This document shows positions 7,696 to 61,950 of a stretch of 64,000 nt of DNA, piece by piece. The stretch is from assembly GCA_002507245.1 (NCBI GenBank), contig DAZI01000065.1, positions 1,949-65,948 on the forward strand. Reading direction: 5' to 3'. This stretch comes from Candidatus Bathyarchaeota archaeon UBA233 (GTDB lineage Archaea > Thermoproteota > Bathyarchaeia > Bathyarchaeales > UBA233). How positions within the stretch are numbered: position 1 is the first letter of the stretch; each line of letters starts with the position of its first letter. The position numbers and the translations under genes are program-made. The notes beneath the pieces are model-generated. The model ran no database searches. It saw nothing but the letters and a program-made list of their open reading frames with translations, and was not told the origin of the DNA.

Positions 7696-8259
7696 GTGAA
7701 AATGCGAAGCTCTATAACCGCTGAATTTATCCAAAACTTTCTTGTAGTGTGGGATCCTTCTGAAGGTTCAGAACTTTACAAAAAAGGCTTCTACGGAAAA
7801 CCCTTAGGAATTCCGAAGCCAAAGACCCCTCAATTCAACGTCCCTCTAGTTCTTGACCTAATGGAAGGCTTGTACTTGGCTGAAAAACGCATAATTCACG
7901 TGGTGGAAGGCTCCAAGAAACGTCGAGTGAGTTTAGAAAAACTAAGGAAAACAGCCCGGAAACTCTATGAAGATTTTGACCAAAAATACATAGTTTATAA
8001 AGACTTACGCGAACATGGGCTTGTGGTTACTCCGGGGATAAAGTATGGCTGCGACTTTGCAGTATACAAACAGGGGCCAGGATTGGAACATGCGCCTTTT
8101 ATGGTTTCAGTTAAGAAATTAGCTGATGAAGTTACTGCAACTGAGATAGTCAAAGCTGGAAGGCTTGCTACAACCGTAAGAAAACGGTTCATAATAGCAA
8201 CTCCGGACACTCAAACGAAAAAAGTCAGCTATTTAATCTTCAAATGGTTTAAAGCTTAA
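7696..8259 (+). CDS. endA: tRNA-splicing endonuclease (EndA, catalytic-type subunit)
   Basis: 187 aa. YKDLREHGLVVTPGIKYGCDFAVYKQGPGLEHAPFMVSV matches the EndA catalytic domain, with Tyr/His and a downstream Lys. Confidence 0.8.
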   Translation: MKMRSSITAEFIQNFLVVWDPSEGSELYKKGFYGKPLGIPKPKTPQFNVPLVLDLMEGLYLAEKRIIHVVEGSKKRRVSLEKLRKTARKLYEDFDQKYIVYKDLREHGLVVTPGIKYGCDFAVYKQGPGLEHAPFMVSVKKLADEVTATEIVKAGRLATTVRKRFIIATPDTQTKKVSYLIFKWFKA

Positions 8260-10313: not shown

Positions 10314-10403
10314 TGGGCCGGGCCGGACTTGAACCGGCGACCTCAGCCTCGTAAGGGCTGCTTTAGGTCCAAGAGATGTCCTACCATGCTAGACGACCGG
10401 CCC
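10314..10403 (-). tRNA. tRNA-Val (anticodon UAC) with a 16-nt intron at non-canonical position 25/26
   Basis: Minus strand: GGGCCGG TC GTCT AGCATGGTA GGAC [ATCTCTTGGACCTAAA] G CAGCC CTTACGA GGCTG AGGTC GCCGG TTCAAGT CCGGC CCGGCCC A. Removing the bracketed 16 nt gives a 74-nt cloverleaf. CCA is not encoded. Confidence 0.8.
10362..10377 (-). other. putative tRNA-Val intron (bulge-helix-bulge)
   Basis: TAGG (exon) pairs with CCTA (intron) as a 4-bp helix. It is flanked by the 3-nt bulges ACA and AAG, with an inner hairpin TCT-CTT-GGA. Confidence 0.65.
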
Positions 10404-18920: not shown

Positions 18921-19020
18921 TGGCGGGCCCGCGGGGATTTGAACCCCGGATCTTCGGCTCCGGAGGCCTGCGCATCATATCGATGATTCGACGCCTTAAT
19001 CCGGACTGGGCTACGGGCCC
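18921..19020 (-). tRNA. tRNA-Arg (anticodon CCG) with a 21-nt intron at non-canonical position 29/30; CCA encoded
   Basis: Minus strand: GGGCCCG TA GCCC AGTCCGGATTA AGGC G TCG [AATCATCGATATGATGCGCAG] GC CTCCGGA GCCGA AGATC CGGGG TTCAAAT CCCCG CGGGCCC G CCA. Splicing restores the 5-bp anticodon stem TCGGC/GCCGA. Confidence 0.8.
18968..18988 (-). other. putative tRNA-Arg intron (bulge-helix-bulge)
   Basis: GCGU (exon nt 24-27) pairs with GCGC (intron 3' end) as a 4-bp helix. Bulges are CGA and AGG. The inner helix AUCAU/AUGAU has loop CGAU. Confidence 0.65.
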
Positions 19021-19039: not shown

Positions 19040-19549
19040 TTAGGTTTCTATTACTTCTTGGCTTATCCACCAAGCTTTCCTTTTTCCAGTTCTTTCTCCA
19101 GCGTAATATTCCACTATGGGTCTTCCAAGTTGTTTTTTCGATGTTCTCTGTATTTTTCTCAACCGGTTTAATACTAACCAACGATTGGTTCCCGTATATT
19201 CGGCTAGCTCTGGCGTGGTTGCGCCTTTATAGTGAAGGAGATATTCCATTATTTTGCGGTCTATTTCATCGATGCAAAAAGTATATGGGTTTACTGTTCC
19301 ATGTTCGTAAGTTAATATTTCAAGTTCGCCCAAGCATTTTTTTATTTCTCCATATCTTTCCTCCAGTTGACTTATTCTTTTCTCAAGTTCCAAGATTTTG
19401 TCTGGTTTTGGAGTGTGTTGGAGTTTTTCGATGATGGCGTCGCGGATGAAACTGCTTCTTTCTCCTTCAGGAATTCGTATCAACAATTCTTTGTATACTA
19501 TTTCAGGAATTTTAACAGAAATAGTGACCAGTTTCTCCATGGCAATCAC
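19040..19549 (-). CDS. ribbon-helix-helix (CopG-like) plus winged-helix transcriptional regulator
   Basis: The N-terminus VTISVKIPEIVYKELLIRIPEGERSSFIRDAIIEKL is RHH-like. The C-terminus IMEYLLHYKGATTPELAEYTGTNRWLVLNRLRKI is wHTH-like. Confidence 0.5.
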   Translation of the reverse strand: MIAMEKLVTISVKIPEIVYKELLIRIPEGERSSFIRDAIIEKLQHTPKPDKILELEKRISQLEERYGEIKKCLGELEILTYEHGTVNPYTFCIDEIDRKIMEYLLHYKGATTPELAEYTGTNRWLVLNRLRKIQRTSKKQLGRPIVEYYAGERTGKRKAWWISQEVIET

Positions 19550-40486: not shown

Positions 40487-42838
40487 TTGTCCTTCAAAAA
40501 TGTACGTGTAAAAATAGATGAACTGAAAACACGCGCTGCACTTATAAAAAACCTACAACTTTCCATCGGAAATGTCATGGAAGAAACATGGGAGGAACAT
40601 GTTGGGCCAACACCTTTCCCTTCAGTAACTAGTCTCCGCGAATGGGACATGAAACTTTTAAAACGGTATAAGCCGTACTATCTGCCCTTCTGTGAACTTT
40701 GTTGCCTCTGTACTTTTGGCAAATGCGACCTTAGCGAAGGAAAACGTGGAGCCTGCGGAATTGATATGGCTGCACAACAATCTAGGATAGTTTTACTAGC
40801 GTGTTGCATCGGCGCTGCAACCCATATCGCTCATGCAAGACATCTAGTTGAACATCTAATTGAAAAGTTTGGACGTAGCCATCCAATAGATGTGGGTGGT
40901 GTACATGTCAAACTTGAAGCTCCAATTACTCGTTTAGTCTGTGGAGTTCGGCCAAAAACTCTAGGCGACCTTGAAGGAATCTTGGACTATCTGGAAACCC
41001 AGGTTACTCATTTGCTGTCAGCAACTCACACTGGACAGGAAGGAAACAATTTAGACTTTGAATCAAAGGTTTTCCATGCTGGGATGATAGATCATGTTGG
41101 GCTAGAAATCGCAGATATAGCCCAGGTCGCTGCCTATGGCTTTCCTAAAGCAGATCCAGAAGCGCCACTGGTCGACTTAGGTTTTGGAGCCATTGATATA
41201 AACAAGCCAGTTATAATGTGCGTCGGGCATAATGTTGTCCCTACTGTCGGAATCGTGGATTATATAAAATCTAACGGTCTAGACGGACAAGTTGAAGTAT
41301 GTGGACTATGTTGCACTGCTCATGATACCACCCGCTATTACCCTAAAGCAAAGATAGTTGGCCCAATTTCGTGGCAAATCCGCTTTATAAGAAGCGGAGT
41401 GCCCGATGTTGTTATATTAGATGAACAATGCATTCGAACTGACGCTTTAAATGAGGCTCAGCGAATAAAAGCCCCAGTGATAGTTACAAGCGACAAGAAC
41501 TGCATGGGGCTACCAAATCGTACTGGTGACCCTCCAGATACTATAGTAGACGATCTGATAACCGGAAAGGTCCCCGGAGTTCTCATTCTAGACCCTGAAT
41601 TAGTAGGGGAAGTAGCCGTAAGAACCGCCGTTAAAGTGGCACCTTTAAGAAAGAAATTCAAGACTCTACCAGAAACATCTGACGTTATCTCCGGAGCTAA
41701 ACTGTGTAGAAAATGCAACAACTGCAAACGAGTATGTCCCCAAGACTTAGATATTCCCGAAGCCATGGAAACTGCGGCTAACGGTGACCTATCCCTTCTC
41801 GCGGATTTATACGAGTTCTGCATAGGCTGCACTAGATGTGAACATGTATGTCCGGTAGAACTTCCAATCCATAGTTTTATAGTGAAAGCTGGGGAAAAAC
41901 AGCTCAAAGCAGAAATATTCAAGATTCGCTCCGGAAGAGGAGCTATTCAAGACACGGAAATCCGAAATGTCGGAAGTCCCATAGTGCTAGGCGAAATCCC
42001 AGGAATCCTTGCTGCGGTAGGGTGTGCCAATTATGCCAAAGGCGGAAGAGAAGTTGCCGAGATATGCATGGAATTTGCAAACCGCCGATACATTGTTGTA
42101 ACTTCAGGGTGTGCTGCCATGTCTGCTGCAATGTACAAAAACGGAGAAGGGAAGACGCCCTATGAAATGTTCACTGGGAATTTCGAGGCTGGATGTATTG
42201 TTAACGTCGGCTCCTGTGTAACTAACTCACACATCGCCGGAGCAGCTATAAAAATTGCAAGTATATTCGCTAAACGTAACTTGCGCGCAAACTATGAGGA
42301 AATAGCGGACTATATACTTAACCGTGTAGGCGCCGTTGGACTCGCTTGGGGAGCTATGTCTCAAAAAGCTGCCTCCATAGCTAGTGGCTTTTGGCGTTTG
42401 GGAATCCCTGTAATAGTGGGACCGCACGGCGCCAAATATCGTCGAATGCTAATGGGCAGGAAAGACCGTGAAGAGGACTGGTATGTTTACGATGCTAGGA
42501 CTGGTGAACGAGTATATGTAGGGCCAACGCCAGAGCATTTATTCTATGCGGCTGAAACTAAGGAGGAAGCCATGGTTATGATCGCTAAACTTTGTATGCG
42601 CCCCAATGACACAACGAAAGGTAGGGCCATAAAGTTGACCCACTATATAGACCTACACAAGCGAATGTACGGAAAAATCCCCGATGATATTCACATGTTT
42701 GTGCGGACAAAAGCGGATATACCTATTACAATGAAGGATGAAATACTTAAAATCCTAGAAGAACGCGGATGGAAGGAAACGAGAATTCCGGACCCAACCT
42801 TGCTTCCGAGGCTGATAAGAAGGAGAAAGGAGGAATAA
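40487..42838 (+). CDS. cdhA: CO dehydrogenase/acetyl-CoA synthase complex subunit alpha (CdhA)
   Basis: FCELCCLCTFGKCDLSEGKRGACGIDM N-terminal clusters. Internal 2x[4Fe-4S] insert CRKCNNCKRVCPQ / CIGCTRCEHVCPV. About 780 aa. ATG 40577 is an alternative start. Confidence 0.88.
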   Translation: MSFKNVRVKIDELKTRAALIKNLQLSIGNVMEETWEEHVGPTPFPSVTSLREWDMKLLKRYKPYYLPFCELCCLCTFGKCDLSEGKRGACGIDMAAQQSRIVLLACCIGAATHIAHARHLVEHLIEKFGRSHPIDVGGVHVKLEAPITRLVCGVRPKTLGDLEGILDYLETQVTHLLSATHTGQEGNNLDFESKVFHAGMIDHVGLEIADIAQVAAYGFPKADPEAPLVDLGFGAIDINKPVIMCVGHNVVPTVGIVDYIKSNGLDGQVEVCGLCCTAHDTTRYYPKAKIVGPISWQIRFIRSGVPDVVILDEQCIRTDALNEAQRIKAPVIVTSDKNCMGLPNRTGDPPDTIVDDLITGKVPGVLILDPELVGEVAVRTAVKVAPLRKKFKTLPETSDVISGAKLCRKCNNCKRVCPQDLDIPEAMETAANGDLSLLADLYEFCIGCTRCEHVCPVELPIHSFIVKAGEKQLKAEIFKIRSGRGAIQDTEIRNVGSPIVLGEIPGILAAVGCANYAKGGREVAEICMEFANRRYIVVTSGCAAMSAAMYKNGEGKTPYEMFTGNFEAGCIVNVGSCVTNSHIAGAAIKIASIFAKRNLRANYEEIADYILNRVGAVGLAWGAMSQKAASIASGFWRLGIPVIVGPHGAKYRRMLMGRKDREEDWYVYDARTGERVYVGPTPEHLFYAAETKEEAMVMIAKLCMRPNDTTKGRAIKLTHYIDLHKRMYGKIPDDIHMFVRTKADIPITMKDEILKILEERGWKETRIPDPTLLPRLIRRRKEE

Positions 42839-42841
42839 ACC

Positions 42842-43405
42842 GTGAGCTTAATAGCAGAACCTTGGCAAAGAGCTGAAGTTGCAGGTACAAAAAAGGCTTT
42901 GATCATAAACAAGCCTGAAATAGTAGCTGCTATGATCAAACGGGCGAAACGTCCAATTCTAGTAGTTGGACATCAAGTTGTTGAAACCGAGTTAAGTGAA
43001 GGAGAAAAGGCTATTGATCGCATAATAGAATTAGCGAAAACCGCAGAAATCCCAGTGGTAGCAACGGCGCATATTATCAAAGAATTCCTTAACCGCGGTT
43101 TCAATCCGTCATCCCATATGTCAATTATGGAAATAGGGAGCAGGCTTCAGGCCCCAGATTGGACAGGACTGGACGGGATGGGAGCTTATGACTTAGCTAT
43201 ATTCGTTGGCATACCTTATTATATGGAATGGGTTATCCTCACAGGGCTCAAAAACTTTGCCCAAAACCTTAAAACCGTATCTCTCGATAGGTTCTACCAA
43301 CCTCACGCAAATTGGTCTTTCCCAAATCTTCCCCTACAAAAATGGGATGAGCAACTCAAACTCATAACGAATTTACTTAAAGAAAGAGAGGAGGGAACAG
43401 CATGA
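42842..43405 (+). CDS. cdhB: CODH/ACS complex subunit epsilon (CdhB)
   Basis: 187 aa, sitting between cdhA and cdhC. The start of cdhC overlaps its stop (ATGA). Confidence 0.8.
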   Translation: MSLIAEPWQRAEVAGTKKALIINKPEIVAAMIKRAKRPILVVGHQVVETELSEGEKAIDRIIELAKTAEIPVVATAHIIKEFLNRGFNPSSHMSIMEIGSRLQAPDWTGLDGMGAYDLAIFVGIPYYMEWVILTGLKNFAQNLKTVSLDRFYQPHANWSFPNLPLQKWDEQLKLITNLLKEREEGTA

Positions 43406-44808
43406 GCATGTTTGAAGATATCCCAGTAGAAGTAGGCGTCATATACGAGGGCGAAAGAATACGACGAAAAGAAATGCAAGTAGAATTCGGTGGCCCCAAC
43501 ATTGAACATAAATTCGAACTCGTAAGAGTCAAAAGTCCAGATGAAATAGAGGATGGGAAAATAACCATAATTGGCCCTGACATAAAAGACATGCCCGAAG
43601 GGAGCAGTCACCCTCTAGGTATACTCGTCGAAGTAGCTGGCGCTCAACTCGAATCTGAACTGGAAGGGGTAATTGAAAGGCGAATCCATGAATACTGCAA
43701 CTTCATCGAAGGAATCATGCACTTAAACCAACGCTATGATATATGGTTAAGATTAAGCAAAAAATCCTATCAAAAAGGGCTAAACTCCCTGGTCTACATA
43801 GGTAAAGTGCTACACAAGCTCTTCAAGAGCGAGCTACCAATCATAGAGAAAATTCAGATAACCTTCATAACCGACACTGAAAGAGTTAAAGAGCCTTGGA
43901 AAGAAGCTCTCGAAATATACGAGGCCCGCGACGCAAGAGCAAGAGGCTTAAAAGACGAGGAAGTAGACACTTTCTATGGATGTACCCTTTGTCAATCCTT
44001 CGCACCGACTCACGTCTGCATTATAACCCCGCAAAGATACTCCAATTGCGGCGCCATAAGTTGGTTTGATGGAAGAGCTTCAGCGAGAATAGACCCAAAA
44101 GGACCAGTATTCGCCATTGAAAAAGGTGAACTACTCGACCCAGTTAAAGGAGAATACAGCGGAGTAAATGAGATGGCAAAGCAAAAAACCCTAGGCGAGG
44201 TAACAAGAGTTTGGCTTTACTCTGCATTCGGCCACCCCCATACGTCATGTGGATGCTTTGAAGGAGTAGCTTTCTATATTCCTGAAGTTGACGGCTTCGG
44301 CGTTGTCCACCGAGGATACCGTGAACCTACAGTCAACGGCCTGCCCTTCTCAACATTAGCTGACTCTACAGCAGGCGGACGACAAATAGATGGATTCCAC
44401 GGAATCTCCATTGAATACATGCGTTCTCCAAAGTTTCTACAAGCCGACGGCGGATGGAACCGCGTGGTATGGATGCCCTTCGAAGTTAAAGAACGTGTCA
44501 AAGACTTCATCCCAAAAGAGATAGTTGACAAAATAGCCACAGAGAAAGAAGCAAACACTATCGAAGAATTGAAGAAGTTCTTACAGGAAAAAGGACATCC
44601 CATCGTTGAAAGATGGAAAACCCTGCCAGCTGAAGCCAAAGCCATAGCCGTGGAAGAAGAAGCCGTTGAAATGCCAGCTGAAGCCCCAGTCGCGACATTA
44701 CCAACACTCCCAATAACAGCCGGCGGTTTCAAAATAATCTTAAAAGACGCCAAAATCTACGCAAAAAAGGTTATAATACGCATAGAAAAGCCCGAAAAGA
44801 AAGGGTGA
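43402..44808 (+). CDS. cdhC: CODH/ACS complex subunit beta (CdhC, A-cluster acetyl-CoA synthase)
   Basis: FYGCTLCQSFAPTHVCIITPQRYSNCGAISWFDGRA and HTSCGCFE (the Cys-Gly-Cys Ni site). Confidence 0.9.
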   Translation: MSMFEDIPVEVGVIYEGERIRRKEMQVEFGGPNIEHKFELVRVKSPDEIEDGKITIIGPDIKDMPEGSSHPLGILVEVAGAQLESELEGVIERRIHEYCNFIEGIMHLNQRYDIWLRLSKKSYQKGLNSLVYIGKVLHKLFKSELPIIEKIQITFITDTERVKEPWKEALEIYEARDARARGLKDEEVDTFYGCTLCQSFAPTHVCIITPQRYSNCGAISWFDGRASARIDPKGPVFAIEKGELLDPVKGEYSGVNEMAKQKTLGEVTRVWLYSAFGHPHTSCGCFEGVAFYIPEVDGFGVVHRGYREPTVNGLPFSTLADSTAGGRQIDGFHGISIEYMRSPKFLQADGGWNRVVWMPFEVKERVKDFIPKEIVDKIATEKEANTIEELKKFLQEKGHPIVERWKTLPAEAKAIAVEEEAVEMPAEAPVATLPTLPITAGGFKIILKDAKIYAKKVIIRIEKPEKKG

Positions 44809-44814
44809 AACCGG

Positions 44815-46026
44815 TTGGCTAATAAGCCGGAAAAAGAAAAGCAAGGAATAAGACTGGATCCAACGCTTTTTGATTTACTGGCGAAATTTCATGAAATCGA
44901 ACTTGAAGATGTGGAAATGGACGTTGGCGACCTAGAAATATGGATTCAGCCAGGGGCAACCGCTATCCCCCAAATCATGCCCAAACCTCCGTCCAAAAAG
45001 GCAAAACCTATAACTCTAATCGAGGTGGGGTTCACCCCCCCTCTCGAGCAGTATCCCGGACAGATAGTAGAAGTGAAACTTGGCGCAACCAAAAGTGAAG
45101 GTGGAACCCGTGGAAAATCCATAGTCATTGGAGGCGAAAGATCTCCTGCTTTCTGCATGTTTGAAAATCCTATGCCCAACCCGCCTATTGTTTCCCTCGA
45201 TGTATTCGACATGCGAATTCCATTGGCAAAAGCCGTTAAAATGCATGTAACTGAAGTACTGGACGATCCCGCTGCTTGGGCTAAATTAGCAGTAGAAAAA
45301 TTCGGGGCGGACATGGTTACCCTTCATCTAATAAGCATTGATCCCTTGCAGAAAGACACCTCGCCTGAAGAAGCAGTAAAAACTGTTGAAGATGTACTTC
45401 AGGCTGTAGATGTACCCTTAATAATAGGCGGGTGTGGTGATCCGAAAAAGGACTTAGCTGTATTCGAGAAAGTAGCTGAAACCTTTGCAGGAGAAAGATT
45501 CCTTTTAAGCTCAGTTACACAGGACATGGATGTGGAGAAAGCCGCTCTAGCCGCAAAGAAGCATGGGCATGTGGTTCTCTCATTTACCCCTATGGACATG
45601 AACCTTGCAAGGGAACTTAACCGTAGGCTATACGAGTTCATCCCCAAAGATCACATAGTGATGGATACAACGACAGCAGCCCTAGGCTATGGGCTTGAAT
45701 ATGCCTTCACAGTGATGGAGCGTGCAAGGCTAGCTGCATTGATGGGTGATCAAGAATTGCAACACCCTATGTCCTCAGGTACAACCAACGCGTGGGCAGC
45801 ACGTGAAGCATGGATGAAAATGGCGCCCGAATGGGGGCCAAGAGAACTTAGAGGTCCGATATGGGAAACCATTACTGCGTTAACCTTGCTTTTCGCTGGA
45901 GTAGATCTCTTTATGATGATGCATCCAGCTGCAGTTAAAACGCTTAAGGACGTCGTCAGAGAGCTTCTGAGCGGGCATTCAGGTAACGCTAAGAAAATCG
46001 CTGAGTGGATAACTGTTAAAACTTAA
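44815..46026 (+). CDS. cdhD: CODH/ACS complex subunit delta (CdhD, corrinoid protein small subunit)
   Basis: 403 aa, TIM-barrel-like. Position and length match cdhD. Confidence 0.8.
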   Translation: MANKPEKEKQGIRLDPTLFDLLAKFHEIELEDVEMDVGDLEIWIQPGATAIPQIMPKPPSKKAKPITLIEVGFTPPLEQYPGQIVEVKLGATKSEGGTRGKSIVIGGERSPAFCMFENPMPNPPIVSLDVFDMRIPLAKAVKMHVTEVLDDPAAWAKLAVEKFGADMVTLHLISIDPLQKDTSPEEAVKTVEDVLQAVDVPLIIGGCGDPKKDLAVFEKVAETFAGERFLLSSVTQDMDVEKAALAAKKHGHVVLSFTPMDMNLARELNRRLYEFIPKDHIVMDTTTAALGYGLEYAFTVMERARLAALMGDQELQHPMSSGTTNAWAAREAWMKMAPEWGPRELRGPIWETITALTLLFAGVDLFMMMHPAAVKTLKDVVRELLSGHSGNAKKIAEWITVKT

Positions 46027-46048
46027 AAAGTTTAAGGAGGCATCCGGA

Positions 46049-47473
46049 TTGACTGAAGTTCGGAAGAAAGGTTTCAAGGAATTAAGTCCAATAGACGTTT
46101 ATATGCTTCTGCCTAAAACTAACTGCAAGGAGTGCGGCTTAGAAAACTGTATGGCTTTCGCCGCGAAAGTTGTGAACCGAGAGATCAACATTGAAAAGTG
46201 TCCGCCACTGTTAACTAAGCAGTTCGAGAAGCAATACAAGCAGCTTTCCGAAATGTTAAAACCTGCCGTGAAAGAAGTGGTCATCGGAGTCGGCGAAAAA
46301 GCCGTGAAAATAGGCGGCAAACTTGTAATGCATCGTCACGAGTTCGCCTACTTTAATCCTACTCCCATAGCCATAGACGTAACAGACGAAATGACCGAAG
46401 AAGAAATAGTTGATAGAGTTAAACGCACGGAAAGCTTCTCCTACATCTATATTGGGCAGACCTTAAAGCTGAACATGATAGCTGTGCGTTCTACATCAAA
46501 CAGCCCGGAAAAATTCAAATTAACAGTCAAAAAGGTAATGGAAAACACGAGTCTACCTTTGATTCTTTGCAGCTTCGACCCTACAGTCATGGAATCCGGC
46601 TTAATGGCAGCTTCAAAGTCCAAACCGCTAATCTATGCCGCTACGAAGGAAAATTGGAAGGAAATGGCTGAACTTGCCCTTATGTATGACTGTCCCCTTG
46701 CAGTTTTCGCTCCTAATGACCTAAAACTGCTTCGTTCTTTGGTGAAAACTCTGCTTGAATATGGAGTGAAAGATCTAGTTCTAGACCCGGGAACATTCCC
46801 GACCGCAGGATTAGCTGACACGATAAACAATTTCACCATGATTCGCCGTGCAGCCTGCAAACATGGAGATGAGCTGTTCGGTTTTCCAATTTTAGGCGTA
46901 CCCCTAACAGTTTGGCTCGAGAAAGGCGAAGCGCCCTCAGAAGTGGTCATGTGGAAGGAAGCCTACTTGGCAGGTATGCTTATTGTGCGGTATGCCGACT
47001 TACTTATAATGCACAGCTTGGATGGGTGGGTTCTCTTACCAAACGTGATTCTTCGCCAGAACATATATACCGATCCGAGAAAACCTGTAGCTGTCGAACC
47101 TGGGCTTCGAACTTTTGGAACTCCAAATGAAAACTCGCCTGTAATGATGACAACGAACTTCGCCTTAACCTATTACACAGTAGCTTCAGACATAGAAGCT
47201 TCAGGCGTAGACTCCTACCTAATAGTTGTAGACACTGAAGGAATAGCCGTCGACAGCGCTGTTGCTGGAAGAAAACTTACAGCCGAAAAAGTAGCAGAGG
47301 CCATAAAGGAATCCGGAGTAGAAAACATGGTCAAACATAGGAAGCTGATAATACCGGGGAAAGCAGCTAGGCTCAGCGGGGAAATCGAGCAACTAAGCGG
47401 ATGGGAAGTCCTCGTAGGGCCAAGAGATTCCTCATCTATCCCTGCGTTCCTTCAAGAAAAATGGAGCAGGTAA
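46049..47473 (+). CDS. cdhE: CODH/ACS complex subunit gamma (CdhE, corrinoid/Fe-S protein large subunit)
   Basis: N-terminal [4Fe-4S] motif LPKTNCKECGLENCMAFA...CPPL. 474 aa. Confidence 0.88.
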   Translation: MTEVRKKGFKELSPIDVYMLLPKTNCKECGLENCMAFAAKVVNREINIEKCPPLLTKQFEKQYKQLSEMLKPAVKEVVIGVGEKAVKIGGKLVMHRHEFAYFNPTPIAIDVTDEMTEEEIVDRVKRTESFSYIYIGQTLKLNMIAVRSTSNSPEKFKLTVKKVMENTSLPLILCSFDPTVMESGLMAASKSKPLIYAATKENWKEMAELALMYDCPLAVFAPNDLKLLRSLVKTLLEYGVKDLVLDPGTFPTAGLADTINNFTMIRRAACKHGDELFGFPILGVPLTVWLEKGEAPSEVVMWKEAYLAGMLIVRYADLLIMHSLDGWVLLPNVILRQNIYTDPRKPVAVEPGLRTFGTPNENSPVMMTTNFALTYYTVASDIEASGVDSYLIVVDTEGIAVDSAVAGRKLTAEKVAEAIKESGVENMVKHRKLIIPGKAARLSGEIEQLSGWEVLVGPRDSSSIPAFLQEKWSR

Positions 47474-52206: not shown

Positions 52207-52538
52207 GGACGGTGGGTCCTGAAGCTCGACGCCTAGTATCCGCCAACCCAAAGCGTTCCCGTTGCTCATACCCGCACTCCCTTGAGCGCTAAACGTCCAA
52301 GCTTAGGTTGCTCCCTCCCGGGCCTGGCCAGGTTCACTTGGTGAACATGGTGGTCAGCCTCCCTACGAAGGCTGCCCCATGACCGTTAGCCCCAAGGGAC
52401 GGGTAGTCATTGTTTAAGGAACGCGGAGTTGACGGGCTTAGGCGCCTCACTTCAGCTTCAGCCCGTCCTGTAGAGGGTTTACGGTCGAGGCCGATGCCTC
52501 TCAGGGGACCCCTAGCCCCCCGCCTAGACCCACCGCCC
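52207..52538 (-). ncRNA. signal recognition particle RNA (7S/SRP RNA)
   Basis: GC-rich block of about 330 nt in AT-rich DNA. The ends pair (GGCGGTGGGTC / GACCCACCGTCC). The minus strand contains CCAGGCCCGGGAGGGAGCAACC (helix 8 with GGGA tetraloop) and GCGCTCAAGGGAGTGCGGG, as in archaeal SRP RNAs. ORF 52334-52540 inside it is spurious. Confidence 0.85.
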
Positions 52539-54266: not shown

Positions 54267-54791
54267 ATGCTTAGAGATTTTAACCTTTTGATTACAACGA
54301 CTCGTGGAAATGAAGATGAAGCCTGCTCAGAAATCTGGTATTTGTTAGGCGAAATAGGTGATAAAGCGCCAACCGTTGATAAAACAGGCATATCGGGATT
54401 GGTCGCTGCTAAAACAGCCTTTAATCCATTCGAAGTCATAGAAAAGTTCAGGGAAATTCTGAAACAGCGACCCTACGAGTTTCGTTACACGTTACGAGTT
54501 ATTCCCATAGAGCGAACCATCCGCACAGACCTAAACGAAATCAGACGCGTAGCAACGGAAATGGGTTCAAAAATAAAGGAAAACGAAAGCTTCCGGATAA
54601 CTGTCGAGAAAAGGTTTACCCAGCTCTCCTCTCGCGATATAATTGACGCGGCTGCAGCAAACATTGAAAGGAAGGTAAATTTGACTTCTCCAGATAAGAT
54701 TCTTCTTATTGAGGTAGTTGGCGGAGTAACAGGCATATCGGTGGTAAAACCAAACGATATTCTCTCAGTTAGTAAAGAAAAGTTCAGCTAA
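54267..54791 (+). CDS. THUMP-domain protein
   Basis: 174 aa. FNLLITTTRGNEDEACSEIWYLLGE...FRITVEKRF...LLIEVVGGVTGISVV matches the stand-alone archaeal THUMP pattern. Confidence 0.55.
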   Translation: MLRDFNLLITTTRGNEDEACSEIWYLLGEIGDKAPTVDKTGISGLVAAKTAFNPFEVIEKFREILKQRPYEFRYTLRVIPIERTIRTDLNEIRRVATEMGSKIKENESFRITVEKRFTQLSSRDIIDAAAANIERKVNLTSPDKILLIEVVGGVTGISVVKPNDILSVSKEKFS

Positions 54792-56064: not shown

Positions 56065-56982
56065 TTGCACGAGATAGTTGAATGTGTCCCGAACTTTAGC
56101 ACCTCTAGCCCAGAAGTTGTTAAAACAATCTTAAGCGAGATTCAACGGGTGAAAGATGCATATGTCCTCGACTATACCTTTGACGATTACTATAATCGTC
56201 TAGTCATCTCCTTCATTGGGAACCGCCAATCCGTGCTCGAGGCAGCTTTAAGCGCAGCTCAAAAAGCCGTAGAACTAATCGACATGACAAAACATAAGGG
56301 GCAACACCCACGGATAGGCGCCGTGGATGTAGTTCCCTTCATTCCAATAAAAAACGTAACTATGCAGGACTGCGTCGAAATAGCTAAGAAATTCGGAGAA
56401 ACCCTTGCAAGAGAACTAGAGATTCCAGTCTATCTCTACGCTGAGGCAGCAACCAAGCCTGAACGAAAAGATCTAGACTGGATAAGAAAAGGCGAATACG
56501 AAAAACTAGCTGAAATGATAACTCAGCCAGACAGAAAACCTGATTTCGGTCCGGCAAAACCGCATCCAACGGCCGGTGCAACCATAACTGGCGCTCGTAA
56601 ACTCATGGCCGGCTTCAACGTAAACCTCGGCACCTCAAATTTGAAAATAGCTAAAAAAATCGCTAAGGCACTACACTCAAAAAAGGGCGGATTAACCCAT
56701 GTCAAAGCAATGGCAGCATACATACCAGAAAAAAATATCACACAGATAGGGATGAGCATAACCGACTACGAGAAAACACCGCTATACAGGGTTTTCGAAC
56801 TTTTGAAAATAGAGGCAGAACGTTATAACGTTCCAATAATAAGCTCAGAATTTTGCGGAATGGCGCCGTTAAAGGCGCTAATTGACATAGCCAGTTACTA
56901 CTTAAAAATAGAAAACCTCACTTCAGAACGGGTCATAGAGATAGCTATACAAGAAGCAATAGAAAAAGGCGAAGCGCTGTGA
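56065..56982 (+). CDS. glutamate formimidoyltransferase (FT domain only, no cyclodeaminase domain)
   Basis: IVECVPNFSTS N-terminus, HPRIGAVDVVPFIP. 305 aa. TTG start. Confidence 0.8.
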   Translation: MHEIVECVPNFSTSSPEVVKTILSEIQRVKDAYVLDYTFDDYYNRLVISFIGNRQSVLEAALSAAQKAVELIDMTKHKGQHPRIGAVDVVPFIPIKNVTMQDCVEIAKKFGETLARELEIPVYLYAEAATKPERKDLDWIRKGEYEKLAEMITQPDRKPDFGPAKPHPTAGATITGARKLMAGFNVNLGTSNLKIAKKIAKALHSKKGGLTHVKAMAAYIPEKNITQIGMSITDYEKTPLYRVFELLKIEAERYNVPIISSEFCGMAPLKALIDIASYYLKIENLTSERVIEIAIQEAIEKGEAL

Positions 56983-58250
56983 AAATCGAAGCCGACCTGC
57001 TAGTGCTTAATGCTAAACAATTACTAACCCTAAAAGGAAAAAGCGAAAAACCGGCTATCCGTGAAGAAATGAACGAGCTTCAGACTATTCTTGACGGCGG
57101 CTTAGCGATCAAAAATGGAAAACTAATCGCTGTTGGGGAATCTTCCGAAATTGAACAAACCTTTGAAAGCCCAAACATTTTAGACGCTGAAGGAAAAGTT
57201 GTCATGCCAGGCTTCGTTGATGCACATACCCACCTAGTTTTCGCTGGATCCAGAGAATCCGAATTCGAAATGCGCATCAAAGGAGCTTCTTACATAGAAA
57301 TTCTAAAAAGGGGAGGTGGAATCCTCCAAACAGTAAAGGCGACACGTGAAGCCTCTTTTGAAACACTCATAGAAACAGGGCTTAAAACCTTGAATACAAT
57401 GTTGTTACATGGAACCACTACTGTGGAAGCCAAGAGCGGGTACGGCTTATCAACAGAACACGAAATAAAAATCTTGGAAGCCATAAAAAAGCTAAATGAA
57501 AAACACGTTTTAGACCTTGTGCCTACCTTCATGGGAGCCCATGCTTTCCCACCGGAATATCTAGAAAATCCAGAAGGCTATGTTGAATTATTAATCCAGG
57601 AGATGATTCCAAAAGTGGCAGAACAACATTTAGCCGAATTCTGCGATGTTTTCTGCGAAAGGGGCGTCTTTGATGTGTCACAATCTAGAAAGATTTTGAA
57701 AACAGCTAAAAACCATGGCTTAAAACCCAAGGTTCATGCCGACGAAATAACTTATTTAGGTGGAGCAGAACTTGCCGCTGAAGTGGGCGCTGTGTCAGCA
57801 GAACACTTGATATGTGCCTCGGAGGCTGGAATCGAATTTTTGGCTAAGACAGGCGTGGTTGCTGTTCTTCTTCCAGCTGCTTCCTTTGCTCTGATGATTA
57901 ATCGTTATGCCGAGGCACGGAAAATGATAACCAAAGGTGTTCCGGTTGCTTTGGGAACAGATTTCAATCCAAGCTGTTGGACTGAAAACATGCAACTAGC
58001 TATCGCCTTTGCATGTCGCAACATGAAGCTTTCACCAGCTGAAGCCATAACTGCAGCTACCATAAACGCTGCACATGCCATAAACCGTGCGAACCATGTT
58101 GGAAGCCTGGAAGTAGGAAAAAAGGCCGATATAATCATTTTAGATATACCTGACTACAAGTTCTTAGGATACCGTTTCGGTGTTAACCTCGTGAAATACG
58201 TGATAAAAAACGGCCGCATAGTTGTTAAAAACGGACAAATTCTTATATGA
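56979..58250 (+). CDS. hutI: imidazolonepropionase
   Basis: PGFVDAHTHLVFAGSRE, GGGI..TV.ATR, HGTTTVEAKSGYGL, VHADE, GTDFNP. 4-nt overlap with the upstream gene. Confidence 0.9.
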   Translation: MKIEADLLVLNAKQLLTLKGKSEKPAIREEMNELQTILDGGLAIKNGKLIAVGESSEIEQTFESPNILDAEGKVVMPGFVDAHTHLVFAGSRESEFEMRIKGASYIEILKRGGGILQTVKATREASFETLIETGLKTLNTMLLHGTTTVEAKSGYGLSTEHEIKILEAIKKLNEKHVLDLVPTFMGAHAFPPEYLENPEGYVELLIQEMIPKVAEQHLAEFCDVFCERGVFDVSQSRKILKTAKNHGLKPKVHADEITYLGGAELAAEVGAVSAEHLICASEAGIEFLAKTGVVAVLLPAASFALMINRYAEARKMITKGVPVALGTDFNPSCWTENMQLAIAFACRNMKLSPAEAITAATINAAHAINRANHVGSLEVGKKADIIILDIPDYKFLGYRFGVNLVKYVIKNGRIVVKNGQILI

Positions 58251-58286
58251 GGACACTTCGGTAAAAGGGTAAACGTTTTACTTTAG

Positions 58287-59975
58287 TTGACGCTTAGCCT
58301 TATGTGGTGGAAATGTTTGACCACACTTGAAAAGCCACCAAGATGTATAGTGGGGCATGAATTACATTGTAAGAACTGGCAAATTGAAGGAATTCTCCGC
58401 ATGCTTTACAACGTAGTTGACCCTGAAGTAGCAAAAGACCCGGAAAACCTCATAGTCTATGGTGGAACTGGGAAGGCGGCTCGAAACTGGAAATGCTTCG
58501 AACAGATTGTCGAAACACTAATGATGTTGGAACAAGACGAAACTATGCTTGTCCAAAGCGGAAAGCCTGTCGCTGTGTTTAAAACTCACGAGTGGGCCCC
58601 CAGAGCTTTAATTGTAAATTCCATGCTTGTGCCAAAATGGGCTACGTGGGACTACTTCTTTGAACTCGAACAGAAAGGGCTTATCATGTTTGGACAGATG
58701 ACAGCTGGGTCTTGGGCTTATATCGGGACCCAAGGAATATTGCAAGGTACATACGAGACTTTGGCTGCCGTGGCTAAGGAACACTTCGACGGAACCCTAC
58801 GCGGAAGACTTGTATTAACTGCTGGACTAGGCGAAATGGGTGGTGCTCAACCCCTAGCAGTTACAATGAACGATGGCGTGGCATTGGTGATAGAAATAGA
58901 CAAACATGCCATAGAACGGCGGATTCGCCATGGGTACTTGGACACATGGACTGACGATCTAGATGAGGCAATAAACATGGTTTTGGAAGCGAAACGTGAG
59001 GGAAAACCACTAAGCGTTGGATTGCTTGGTAATGCTGCGGAGGTACATTCCAACTTTCTCCGGCGAGGCATAATTCCTGATGTTTTGACAGACCAAACGG
59101 CAGCTCACGACCCGTTGAACGGTTATTACCCTGCTGGGCTTTCGAAGGAAGAGGCAGACGAACTTCGAGTCAATAATCCAAAGGAGTATTTGGAAAAATC
59201 CTACAATAGCATACGCATGCAAGTTGAAACCATGGTCAAAATGATGGAAAAAGGCGCAGTAACCTTTGAGTATGGAAATAACCTTCGACAACAAGCCTAT
59301 AACGCCGGATTTAATCAAGCTTTTGCTTACCCCGGATTCGTCCAACGTTACATTCGACCCATGTTCTGCGAAGGAAAAGGTCCCTTCCGCTGGACTTCGC
59401 TCGTAGGAAGCAAAGAAGATATCTACACTTTAGACGACCTAATCCTTGAAAAGTTCGCCTACAATAAGGAATTGTGTCGTTGGATAAGAAAAGCCAAAGA
59501 ACAGGTGAAGTTTCAAGGATTACCCGCCCGAGTTTGCTGGCTCGGCTTCGGCGAAAGAGCGCGATTTGGAAAAATGATAAATGACATGGTTGCAGACGGC
59601 AAACTTTCCGGGCCCATATGGATAGGCCGTGACCACTTGGATGGCGGAAGCGTTGCCTCACCCAACCGTGAAACAGAAGGCATGAAGGACGGTAGCGATG
59701 CTATTGCCGACTGGCCAATACTTAATGCCTTATTAAACGCTGTTGCCGGCGCTACTTGGGTTTCAGTGCACCATGGCGGAGGCGTAGGCATAGGCTACAG
59801 CATCCACGCCGGGATGTGTTTAGTCGCAGACGGAACCGAAGAAGCGGGAAGACGGCTGGTAAGGGTATTAACAACCGACCCTGGAACGGCTATAGTTCGA
59901 CACGCAGATGCAGGATACGAGAAGGCAAAGCAAATAGCCAAAGAAAAGGGAATTAAAATCCCGATGTTGAGGTAG
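58287..59975 (+). CDS. hutU: urocanate hydratase
   Basis: [46 protein letters not shown] and [23 protein letters not shown]. The exact start is uncertain (TTG 58287 or an ATG shortly after). Confidence 0.9.
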
Positions 59976-60031
59976 GTTGGAAAAGGAAAAACGAAGGCAC
60001 CAGCGAGAAGCTATAAAAAGCTCCGTATTAG

Positions 60032-60250
60032 TTACCGGGTATGAGCTTCAATAAATTTTCTTATACTCCTATCATAAGTCCTTTCCACTTCAGATGGGAA
60101 AAAACAACCGGGTAACTCTCCTCTACTTCGATGATATTGTATACATTCACAACATTTTCCGCGTCTGTCGCAAGCAACATAAGTACATGAACAATTTTCT
60201 AAATTCCTCTCCAGATTTGGACAATCTACCATACTTCTCCCTTTCAACAA
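60032..60250 (-). CDS. small Cys-rich protein (DUF6485-like)
   Basis: CPNLERNLENCSCTYVACDRRGKCCECIQYHRSRGELPGCFF. Confidence 0.45.
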   Translation of the reverse strand: MLKGRSMVDCPNLERNLENCSCTYVACDRRGKCCECIQYHRSRGELPGCFFPSEVERTYDRSIRKFIEAHTR

Positions 60251-60390
60251 GCTTTTCTGGGGATAAAGCTTCTTTACTTTATCTTAAATCTATATCTAAG
60301 CTTTCTTTTATAAGGGCAAAGGATAGAATTTTTCTGGCAAAGCTTTTCATATCTTTATGCCTTAAGGATTTCATGCGGTGAAGCGGTCTT

Positions 60391-61950
60391 ATGCATAACC
60401 ATGTTATAGAAATCGACGGCGAAACTCTCACTGTTGAGGATGTTGTTTCAGTTGCCCGTCAAAATGTCAAAGTCGCCCTTTCCGAATCTACAAAAAGGAA
60501 GGTTACTGAAAGCCGTAAAGCTCTTCAAAAAATGATAGCGGAGGGAAAAGTAATCTACGGGGTTAACACGGGGTTTGGCGCCTTAGCTAACACGAAGATA
60601 TCGCCCGAGGAGATTCGGCAATTACAAGTTAACCTCATTCGGAGTCATTCCACCGGTGTAGGTAAAGCCTTTCACAAGGAGGTTGTTCGTGCTGCCATGC
60701 TCTTGCGCGCCAACACTTTAGCTAAGGGTTATTCTGGTGTTCGCTTGAAAGTACTTGAAACTTTGGTTAAAATGCTCAACGAACACGTACATCCAGTTAT
60801 TCCCGAGAAAGGCTCTGTAGGTGCAAGCGGAGATTTGGCCCCTCTTTCACATTTAACTCTCGTTCTAATGGGTGAAGGGGAAGCTGAATACCAAGGCAGA
60901 GTCTTGACTGGAAAACAAGCTATGGAACAGGCTGGGATTCAGCCTTTAACCCTTGAGGAGAAGGAAGGCCTAGCTCTTAATAATGGGACTCAAGTGATGA
61001 CTGCTCTGGCTGCTTTGGCAGTACATGATGCGGAAAAACTCGTTCAAACAGCTGAAGTGGCTGCTGCTTTAACTCTTGAAGCTATGCTTGGAGTTTACGA
61101 TGCCTTTGATGAGAGGATTCATGAAGTGAGGCCTCATCCGGGGCAGATGGCAACCGCTAGAAATATCCGCTCACTGATTCACGGGAGTAAGCTAATTCGT
61201 TTGGGCAAGGAAGCGTTAGAAACGCTAGGATATCCACAAGATCCGTATTCGCTACGTTGCATCCCTCAAGTTCTAGGTGCGGCAAGAGATGCAGTCGCTT
61301 ATACCAGAAAAGTTGTGGAAATAGAGATAAACTCAGCTACTGATAACCCTCTAGTTTTTGCTTCTAACCCCGCTTGTTTTTCTGGTGGGAACTTCCATGG
61401 GCAGCCTATCGCCATAGCCATGGACATGCTTGGAATAGCTATAACTATGGTTGGAAACTTCTCTGAAAGAAGAACGGCAAGGCTTATTGATGAAAAACTT
61501 AACCGAGGACTACCTGCCTTTCTGGTCTCATCTCAAGCAACTAAGGGGCTAAACAGCGGATTCATGACCTTACAATATACAGCTGCCGCCTTAGCTTCAG
61601 AAAACAAGATTTTAGCTCACCCTGCATGCGTCGATTCAATCCCAACCTCAGCTAACTTTGAAGACTTTGTCAGCATGGGAACAACTGCCGCAAGAAAAGC
61701 TAAGGAAATAATTCGAAACACTCAGAATATAATCGGTATAGAACTTATTTGCGCTGCTCAGGCTATAGAATTCCGCGGATGGGAAAATCTTGGAAAAGGA
61801 ACGAAACAGGCCTACAAAGCGATTCGAGATAAAGTTCCCAGACTAGAAGAAGATAGACAATTAAGCATTGACATAGAAACTGTGGTTAGGGAACTCGTTC
61901 AAAACGGAAAACTTGTGGAAGTAATAAGGGATGTGGTGGCGCTGGTTTAG
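60391..61950 (+). CDS. hutH: histidine ammonia-lyase
   Basis: GSVGASGDLAPLSH (MIO-forming Ala-Ser-Gly), YGVNTGFG and NFHGQP. Confidence 0.92.
   Translation: MHNHVIEIDGETLTVEDVVSVARQNVKVALSESTKRKVTESRKALQKMIAEGKVIYGVNTGFGALANTKISPEEIRQLQVNLIRSHSTGVGKAFHKEVVRAAMLLRANTLAKGYSGVRLKVLETLVKMLNEHVHPVIPEKGSVGASGDLAPLSHLTLVLMGEGEAEYQGRVLTGKQAMEQAGIQPLTLEEKEGLALNNGTQVMTALAALAVHDAEKLVQTAEVAAALTLEAMLGVYDAFDERIHEVRPHPGQMATARNIRSLIHGSKLIRLGKEALETLGYPQDPYSLRCIPQVLGAARDAVAYTRKVVEIEINSATDNPLVFASNPACFSGGNFHGQPIAIAMDMLGIAITMVGNFSERRTARLIDEKLNRGLPAFLVSSQATKGLNSGFMTLQYTAAALASENKILAHPACVDSIPTSANFEDFVSMGTTAARKAKEIIRNTQNIIGIELICAAQAIEFRGWENLGKGTKQAYKAIRDKVPRLEEDRQLSIDIETVVRELVQNGKLVEVIRDVVALV

Follow-up and report, generated by a model that had tools for sequence, protein, structure and literature searches.

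The minus strand of positions 18921..19020 of the window (the whole 64-kb stretch of DNA that was analysed) carries a 100-nt gene, read from 19020 to 18921, in which a tRNA-Arg(CCG) is split by a 21-nt intron. Its DNA sequence begins GGGCCCG-TA-GCCC-AGTCCGGATTA-AGGC-G-TCG, passes through the insert part AATCATCGATATGATGCGCAG, and after the insert continues as GC-CTCCGGA-GCCGA-AGATC-CGGGG-TTCAAAT-CCCCG-CGGGCCC-G-CCA. As RNA, the 5' exon (18989..19020, minus strand; tRNA positions 1–29, comprising the 5' strand of the acceptor stem, the D arm, G26 and U27 C28 G29) reads GGGCCCG UA GCCC AGUCCGGAUUA AGGC G UCG and is followed by the intron AAUCAUCGAUAUGAUGCGCAG (18968..18988, minus strand), which lies between positions 29 and 30. 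The 3' exon (18921..18967, minus strand; positions 30–76, comprising G30 C31, the anticodon loop CUCCGGA, the remaining tRNA and the CCA) reads GC CUCCGGA GCCGA AGAUC CGGGG UUCAAAU CCCCG CGGGCCC G CCA. The anticodon CCG, at positions 34–36, occupies 18961..18963, and the gene ends with a discriminator G and an encoded CCA, which the first-pass annotation of this DNA had reported and which can be read directly at 18923-18921. The predicted spliced junction, G29-G30, joins ...GGCGUCG to GCCUCCGGA.

Both the covariance model and the spliced cloverleaf identify the gene. The Rfam tRNA model RF00005 recognizes 19020..18924 with 41.8 bits (gathering score 29), and its alignment covers 71/71 model positions and places an insertion of 32 nt in the anticodon arm. 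Once 18988..18968 is removed, ARAGORN calls a 79-nt tRNA-Arg(ccg) in which the anticodon stem UCGGC/GCCGA and the loop CUCCGGA are restored. This matches the identity and the repaired arm (TCGGC/GCCGA with CTCCGGA in DNA) put forward in the first-pass annotation. The cloverleaf of the spliced form is complete, with a 7-bp acceptor stem, a D arm, a 5-bp anticodon stem, a 7-nt loop with U33, and a T arm made of a 5-bp stem and the T-loop UUCAAAU. U8, A14, G18 G19, G53, U54 U55 C56, A58 and C61 are all readable in the sequence, and the D stem has one C13:A22 mismatch that is common to close relatives. Recounting the mature tRNA gave the same G+C content as before, 54 in the 76 nt that precede the CCA. 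The G+C content of the surrounding genome is ~42%. Exact copies of the window's proteins were found only on short Logan metagenome contigs, and three of these contigs have an identical tRNA-Arg(CCG); sequencing runs in which this genome is present include SRR12613526, SRR5036662 and SRR12613309. We saw no clear archaeal promoter upstream of the gene, because the upstream 169-aa open reading frame (ORF), which has no Pfam match, stops 19 nt before the tRNA; the gene is presumably expressed. The stretch 18921..19020 is a real tRNA-Arg(CCG) gene, and what it shows is an ordinary case of a feature already known from archaea.

Geometry of the intron motif

We scanned every excision in the precursor, defined by its start and a length of 10–40 nt, for the geometry of the BHB motif. 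In this geometry the 4-bp central helix H pairs the four exon nucleotides that precede one 3-nt bulge with the four intron nucleotides that precede the second 3-nt bulge, each cut falls after the second nucleotide of a bulge, and an intron-side helix h' is required; an excision was scored as fitting if it had 4/4 H pairs and an h' of at least 2 bp. A single excision among 1,829 has this 3-4-3 geometry, precursor positions 33–53 (18988..18968), and removing exactly these nucleotides also restores the cloverleaf. Its central helix pairs the exon strand G24 C25 G26 U27 (18991..18994) with GCGC of the intron (18970..18973). The bulge at the 5' splice site, C28 G29 / A, spans 18988..18990, with the cut predicted after its second nucleotide, and the bulge at the 3' splice site, A G / G30, spans 18967..18969 and is closed on the exon side by G23:C31 alone. 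The inner hairpin h' (18974..18987) consists of AUCAU (18987-18983), the loop CGAU (18982-18979) and AUGAU (18978-18974); all of these elements are on the minus strand. The helix between GCGU (nt 24–27) and GCGC, the bulges CGA and AGG, and the AUCAU/AUGAU hairpin with its CGAU loop had been drawn in this form in the first-pass annotation, and explicit geometry and covariation (below) agree with that drawing.

The BHB geometry of tRNA-Arg(CCG) exceeds chance: when the intron was shuffled and evaluated in the same register, 4/4 central pairs together with an h' of at least 3 bp arose in 0.11% of 100,000 trials. Unconstrained folding of the precursor yields an MFE structure other than the BHB, and constrained folding and explicit geometry tests were used in place of plain MFE folding. 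The BHB-constrained fold has an energy of −40.8 kcal/mol versus −42.9 kcal/mol for the MFE fold at 37 °C, a gap of 2.1, and at 70 °C the two are −18.16 and −18.46 kcal/mol, a gap of 0.3. In the mature tRNA, G24 and C25 are part of the D stem, and U27 is part of the anticodon stem. Because formation of H takes these nucleotides away from both stems, the precursor would have to adopt a non-cloverleaf structure to be cut.

Relatives with an intron at 29/30

We collected related genes with a pattern search that returned at least 120 stretches and left the 5' half of the tRNA unspecified, so the search was unbiased with respect to introns. At least 22 further Arg(CCG) genes contain an insert of 12–37 nt at 29/30. 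Most come from metagenome-assembled genomes (MAGs) labelled Bathyarchaeia or Bathyarchaeota; the other labels among the 29/30-intron genes listed include Hecatella orcuttiae and 'Thermoprotei' SZUA-1514. Most genes from Desulfurococcales, Sulfolobales and Ignisphaera, along with other genes among the matches listed, are intron-less, with a 5' part of 31–34 nt. We left one gene, L033 from the archaeon 'Maxine3', out of all counts because the whole gene did not resolve into a cloverleaf. Its 5' part is 121 nt long and contains several inserts, one of which fits 29/30 with H = GCAU/AUGC.

The motif is shared by these genes. Among the matches listed, 22/23 genes including that of the window form 4/4 central-helix pairs in the predicted register, intron nucleotide 1 is A in 23/23, and the 5' bulge is CG/A in 22/23, the exception being UG/A in L023. 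Nearly all the genes listed have the inner helix, which is built from unrelated sequences, including AUCAU/AUGAU, GUCGA/UCGAC, GCCC/GGGC, CCUCU/AGAGG and GAG/CUC. Exon and intron covary in the central helix, which is GCAC/GUGC in L124 and GCGG/CCGU in L034. Continued pairing of the inner helix in the face of these sequence differences indicates that the motif has been maintained in evolution.

We quantified covariation in a core alignment with fixed geometry that contains 17 distinct sequences. Because this alignment was built in the proposed register, it favours that register in the percentage of paired cells, which is 97.1% for standard pairs versus 82.3 ± 1.9% in shuffles (0/500 reach the observed value) and at most 58% when the partner is slid by 1–3 columns, controls that offset the bias only partly. 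Changes on both sides of a pair, found in 22 cells versus 7.8 expected from shuffles (0/500), and the splice site derived from the cloverleaf are independent of the register chosen for the alignment. In the same 17 sequences, 98.5% of the cells of the central helix are paired, and all three of the inner-helix pairs nearest the bulge (3/3) show compensatory changes on both sides.

Orthology of the locus and history of the intron

The neighbourhood of the gene is conserved. An Arg(CCG) tRNA is flanked in at least 37 loci by the 169-aa ORF, an FBPase (FBP aldolase/phosphatase), a 188-aa ORF that encodes an HTH protein, and a GT4 glycosyltransferase. Relative to the window, identity is 58–72% for the 169-aa ORF, 73–79% for the FBPase in the syntenic Bathyarchaeia loci and 70–78% for the glycosyltransferase. 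This synteny with named MAGs assigns the window to the genome of an uncultivated archaeon of the Bathyarchaeia. Among the matches listed, the CCA is encoded in 33/37 syntenic orthologues, and the intron is present in 17/37 loci and absent from 20/37. In a neighbour-joining tree of the 169-aa small protein, rooted at the midpoint, the 20 intron-less loci form one clade whose labels are mostly soil and peat MAGs, and the 17 intron-bearing loci, many of them from hot-spring and hydrothermal MAGs, branch outside it.

The simplest reading of this distribution is one ancient presence followed by a single loss of the 29/30 intron, because the intron also occurs in more distant lineages. More specifically, we consider it an even call whether the intron is an ancient one that was inherited vertically from before the Bathyarchaeia orders split, perhaps also in Hecatella and 'Thermoprotei' SZUA-1514, that stayed at one syntenic locus despite turnover of its inner sequence, and that was lost once, in the soil and peat clade. 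Because the single-loss history is taken from a midpoint-rooted neighbour-joining tree of a small protein, repeated gain at the same 29/30 site may account for the pattern instead of one ancient presence. If the 29/30 intron is indeed ancient, it would conflict with the widely held idea that tRNA introns of the non-canonical kind were acquired recently and are mobile (PMC4033280), and its orthologues would form a dated series in which the persistence of such introns could be studied. The intron lies at an unusual but documented position, is conserved in the lineage and appears to be old there, and provides a clear case of a non-canonical intron preserved at an orthologous locus and apparently lost once.

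Class of the motif and alternative readings

The strict hBHBh' motif is defined by at least two Watson–Crick pairs in both outer helices (footnote, PMC7714728). The 29/30 motif has the 3-4-3 core and an h' of 5 bp, but its exon-side helix h is the single pair G23:C31, followed by an A22:C32 mismatch. Because h is 1 bp long and the strict definition asks for at least two, the motif belongs to the relaxed, HBh'-like class and not to strict hBHBh'; its relaxed features are a position off 37/38, a 5' site between H and the 5-bp h', and a 3' site closed by 1 bp. The label 'textbook BHB' in the first-pass annotation therefore applies to the core and to h' and has to be dropped for the exon side. An h of only 1 bp also leaves the 3' splice site poorly constrained by secondary structure. 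We think it unlikely that the motif is instead a strict canonical one, to be recognized by any archaeal splicing endonuclease including the narrow-specificity α4 or α'2 enzymes. Such a reading can point to the perfect core and h', and to a distal 6-bp helix that the D-loop UCCGGA could form with the anticodon-loop UCCGGA in the window, L048 and L049. This distal helix is not conserved, however, since most relatives among the matches listed have UAUGGA (TATGGA in DNA) at the D-loop site, and the one-pair h with its A:C mismatch recurs in 20/22 other genes listed. The intron is moreover away from 37/38, and a narrow-specificity enzyme cut a D-loop BHB intron poorly (PMC3241643).

Placement of the intron one nucleotide earlier, at 28/29, would excise GAAUCAUCGAUAUGAUGCGCA and leave an identical mature sequence, because G flanks both junctions; the same holds for L032, L035, L097 and L123. 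The position 29/30 given in the first-pass annotation is correct, but the window sequence on which it was based allows 28/29 too, and what separates the two is the register of the BHB together with relatives whose intron ends in A. Shifting the splice sites by −1 leaves 3/4 central pairs and neither an inner nor an outer helix, and in 16 relatives with an intron ending in A or T (matches listed) only excision after position 29 restores the anticodon stem, which makes 28/29 highly improbable and agrees with cleavage after the second bulge nucleotide, as first proposed. A different identity is returned when ARAGORN is run on the unspliced sequence with its intron option on or off: an unspliced 100-nt tRNA-Asp(AUC), reported as tRNA-Asp(atc), with a long variable arm. 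We give this output practically no credence, since it takes the insert hairpin, which contains an A:A mismatch and two G:U pairs, as its anticodon stem and turns the perfect UCGGC/GCCGA arm and its CUCCGGA loop into a variable arm. Among the orthologues listed, moreover, the supposed Asp anticodon arm varies freely in sequence and in length (12–37 nt), whereas the Arg(CCG) arm is invariant. That the 21-nt insertion has inactivated the tRNA, leaving a decaying pseudogene out of use, also seems very improbable to us. The Rfam tRNA model does miss 13/17 of the intron-bearing orthologues listed at its gathering score, but the exons are highly conserved beside proteins that have diverged to the identities given above for the 169-aa ORF and the FBPase, compensatory changes preserve the BHB geometry of the insert, and the orthologues listed retain the syntenic position and, in 33/37 cases, the CCA. 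The reading we retain is thus a tRNA-Arg(CCG) with a relaxed-motif intron at 29/30.

The Asp(AUC) reading amounts to a class II tRNA, which we reject because its anticodon stem would be poorly paired and would fall in a region that ranges from 12 to 37 nt among the orthologues listed. Two further identities were also rejected. Group I and group II introns have a catalytic RNA core of hundreds of nucleotides; the insert here is 21 nt, and no Rfam intron family matched it at an E-value of at most 1. An intron of 21 nt is also too short for a C/D-box guide RNA.

Splicing endonuclease and proposed processing

The window also encodes a tRNA-splicing endonuclease, EndA (7696..8259, plus strand), a catalytic α-type subunit of 187 aa with matches to PF01974 (1.4e-28) and PF02778 (1.5e-12). 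The best solved relatives of its product are 3P1Z_B from A. pernix (8.5e-41), 2CV8_A from S. tokodaii (1.4e-37) and 2ZYZ_B from P. aerophilum (7.6e-34), all three catalytic α subunits of crenarchaeal (αβ)2 enzymes; the match to the M. jannaschii α4 enzyme, 1A79, is weaker (1.5e-16). The catalytic Tyr, His and Lys motifs are present as FAVY, EHAP and VRKR. The alignment with the A. pernix α subunit runs without gaps through the Crenarchaea-specific loop and places K41/K43 opposite K44/R46. In A. pernix EndA, K44 is needed for activity and the K44/R46 positions confer broad specificity, and moving the loop into a narrow-specificity enzyme allows it to cut at non-standard positions and in relaxed motifs (PMC3241643, PMC6379350). 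Relaxed motifs in general depend on (αβ)2 or ε2 enzymes (PMC6379350, PMC3241643, PMC5829648). A crenarchaeal-type, loop-bearing EndA is in line with the relaxed motif of the tRNA-Arg(CCG) intron, and the product of 7696-8259 is the enzyme predicted to cut it. Pfam annotation covered every ORF in the 64-kb window with a length of 90 aa or more, 67 in all, and none was recognized as an EndA β subunit, an RtcB ligase or an archease, so we infer the heterotetrameric state from similarity, and the ligation step likewise.

Taken together, the data make us highly confident that this is a functional Bathyarchaeia tRNA-Arg(CCG) with a 21-nt, protein-spliced (archaeal-type) intron at 29/30, in the 5' strand of the anticodon stem. 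In the model we propose, exon nucleotides 24–27 of the precursor would exchange their mature partners (in the D stem, at position 26 and in the anticodon stem) for the intron's GCGC, near its 3' end, and form with it the 4-bp central helix. The 5-bp intron hairpin would close the 5' bulge CG/A, and the one exon-side base pair would close the 3' bulge AG/G. The splicing endonuclease, with the catalytic subunit encoded at 7696-8259 and its Crenarchaea-specific loop, would then cut each bulge behind its second nucleotide. The exons would be joined by an RNA ligase, after which the anticodon stem UCGGC/GCCGA and the D stem could form.

Comparison with known systems

Archaeal tRNA introns are documented at 20/21, 22/23, 25/26, 29/30, 30/31 and other positions, especially in Crenarchaeota (PMC4090602), and the two intron positions of the window, 25/26 (in a tRNA-Val gene described below) and 29/30, are already on that published list. 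Like the catalogued non-canonical archaeal introns (Yoshihisa 2014, PMC4090602), the one described here is short, predicted to be excised by protein, located off 37/38 and framed by a 4-bp helix and 3-nt bulges, in a TACK-group genome with a crenarchaeal-type endonuclease. It differs from them in its host, a lineage of Bathyarchaeia, and from the recently spread introns of Thermoproteales in being conserved at a syntenic locus across many species. We found no paper on tRNA introns in Bathyarchaeia within the literature searched.

The closest parallels in motif are the relaxed hBH, HBh' and BHL motifs cut by (αβ)2 EndA (Hirata et al. 2011, PMC3241643; Hirata 2019, PMC6379350). As in those systems, the 5' site of tRNA-Arg(CCG) sits in a well-formed bulge flanked by H and h', and the second splice site is almost without a closing helix; the α subunit of the window has the loop of A. 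pernix EndA and a lysine at the K44 position. Unlike in a true HBh' or BHL motif, both 3-nt bulges can be drawn here, with one G:C pair closing the 3' bulge, and cleavage is predicted. The tRNA-Arg(CCG) motif is therefore intermediate between strict hBHBh' and true HBh'/BHL.

Two other tRNA genes invite comparison at the level of the break point. The split tRNA-Ala genes of Caldivirga maquilingensis (Fujishima et al. 2009, cited in PMC4090602) are divided at 29/30, the same break point as here, and their junction is likewise processed through a BHB-like structure; the Caldivirga tRNA-Ala is made from two separately transcribed halves joined in trans, whereas the window has one gene with a 21-nt cis intron. 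The tRNA-Arg(CCG) of Thermoproteus sp. AZ2 (L073) is the same isoacceptor and is likewise interrupted in the anticodon stem, on its 5' strand, but that intron is 28 nt long, its position is 30/31 and its motif is strict (H 4/4, h' of 7 bp, h of 3 bp). It appears to be independent of the window intron and not its orthologue.

These results extend the known link between non-canonical tRNA introns and loop-bearing endonucleases to Bathyarchaeia, where one 64-kb stretch contains both the substrate and the gene of the enzyme. No new mechanism is revealed, nothing here would surprise a specialist, and the biological point is modest. The practical consequence concerns annotation. Generic tools either mis-call the intron-split tRNA-Arg(CCG), as ARAGORN does with Asp-AUC, or miss it, as Rfam does: its tRNA model reaches the gathering score for 4/17 of the intron-bearing Arg(CCG) orthologues listed. 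As a result, MAGs of Bathyarchaeia may seem to be without this tRNA or to have a spurious one. The remedy is an archaeal intron-aware search.

A second intron-containing tRNA in the window

The second tRNA gene of the window is a tRNA-Val(UAC) at 10314..10403 (minus strand), which has no encoded CCA and contains a 16-nt intron, AUCUCUUGGACCUAAA (10377..10362, minus strand), at 25/26. An all-deletion ARAGORN scan of this gene was too permissive to be informative, and we replaced it with the geometric BHB scan. The motif is of the same type as that of tRNA-Arg(CCG), with H = UAGG/CCUA (4/4 pairs), an h' of 3 bp and an h of 1 bp, and excision leaves a 74-nt tRNA-Val(UAC). The GAC anticodon called by ARAGORN for this tRNA-Val was rejected, as excision at 25/26 yields UAC.

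The tRNA-Arg(CCG) intron is thus, as the first-pass annotation had stated, the second non-canonical intron in the same 64 kb. A permissive Rfam scan of the 64 kb found no further tRNAs. The annotation had gone on to argue that such introns are frequent in the genome; both tRNAs of the window (2/2) have one, but these are only two genes, and the other tRNAs detected in 135 kb from 17 related genomes are four intron-less genes and one long gene. Introns in tRNA genes are common in the lineage and not universal. The window also contains an archaeal SRP RNA at 52210-52535.

Distribution and detection of the tRNA-Arg(CCG) intron

The gene context of tRNA-Arg(CCG) (window 18921-19020, minus strand; 21-nt intron at 29/30) is shared by 37 loci, comprising 17 intron-bearing and 20 intron-less loci. 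Among the matches listed, the 20 intron-less syntenic loci make up a single clade. Comparison of example loci (intron-less L117, L116, L099, L089, L027 and L072 versus intron-bearing L048, L077, L021 and L043) sets this clade, labeled mostly by soil and peat projects (MFD, SPRUCE, Bathy6), against intron-bearing syntenic loci, many of which belong to MAGs from hot springs or hydrothermal settings (JZ, DRTY, Guaymas), a habitat contrast that is confounded with ancestry.

Because only four of the 17 intron-bearing orthologs (L007-L125, among the matches listed) reach the gathering score of the Rfam general tRNA model, the Arg(CCG) gene is probably annotated less often than it occurs in Bathyarchaeia MAGs. 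A related Bathyarchaeota MAG (L107, 6529-6630, minus strand) contains a second over-length tRNA match of 102 nt, presumably another intron-bearing tRNA.

The upstream neighbor of tRNA-Arg(CCG) is a 169-aa ORF (window 19040-19549, minus strand) that ends 19 nt before the tRNA and has no Pfam match. It is conserved at 58-72% identity and adjoins the Arg(CCG) gene in 37 of 37 syntenic loci among the matches listed. The stop codon of its homolog directly abuts the tRNA in L070 and lies ~13 nt upstream in L123, so the promoter of the tRNA may be located within the ORF, or both may be transcribed together.

Variant Arg(CCG) genes and 3′ half copies

The shortest intron in the series, among the matches listed, occurs in L034 ('Thermoprotei' SZUA-1514) and measures 12 nt (AAAUAUCCGUAU). 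Its central helix is intact (4/4) and its exon-side helix has 3 bp; the inner helix is almost absent (1 bp), so that the 5′ bulge widens to a small loop. This motif is the mirror image of that in the window tRNA-Arg, with its 5-bp inner and 1-bp exon-side helices. In Thermoproteus sp. AZ2 (L073), the Arg(CCG) gene is interrupted by a 28-nt intron in a strict hBHBh′ motif (h′ 7 bp, h 3 bp) at 30/31, one nucleotide off the Bathyarchaeia 29/30 site, and this intron looks independent of the Bathyarchaeia one. The tRNA-Arg(CCG) of archaeon isolate Maxine3 (L033) has a 121-nt 5′ part with several inserts, one of which fits 29/30 with a GCAU/AUGC central helix; a further candidate of 32 nt maps to the region of the D-loop, and the full gene with its inserts gave no complete cloverleaf.

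Five loci (L013, L090, L113, L120 and L008) have non-tRNA sequence before copies of the tRNA-Arg(CCG) 3′ half, and some of these copies adjoin a complete gene. They could be attachment-site duplications from integrated elements or halves of split genes.

Other genes in the window

The tRNA-Val gene (window 10314-10403, minus strand) has a 16-nt intron (10362-10377) at 25/26 with the same relaxed motif as tRNA-Arg(CCG); the encoded CCA of tRNA-Arg is absent from tRNA-Val. Its anticodon is UAC, and the GAC reported by ARAGORN is wrong. The gene at 7696-8259 (plus strand) encodes the catalytic (alpha-type) subunit of a tRNA-splicing endonuclease, a protein of 187 aa that has the Crenarchaea-specific loop (K41, K43). 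This gene is 2 kb away from tRNA-Val and 11 kb away from tRNA-Arg, and the 64-kb window contains no beta subunit. A putative SAM-dependent RNA methyltransferase (PF04013; 22768-23361, plus strand) and a THUMP-domain protein (54267-54791, plus strand) are encoded near the tRNA genes and may act in tRNA modification. The CODH/acetyl-CoA synthase cluster (cdh subunits; 40487-47473, plus strand) and the histidine-degradation cluster (formiminotransferase, imidazolonepropionase-like amidohydrolase, urocanase and aromatic amino acid lyase; 56065-61950, plus strand) agree with the assignment to Bathyarchaeia.
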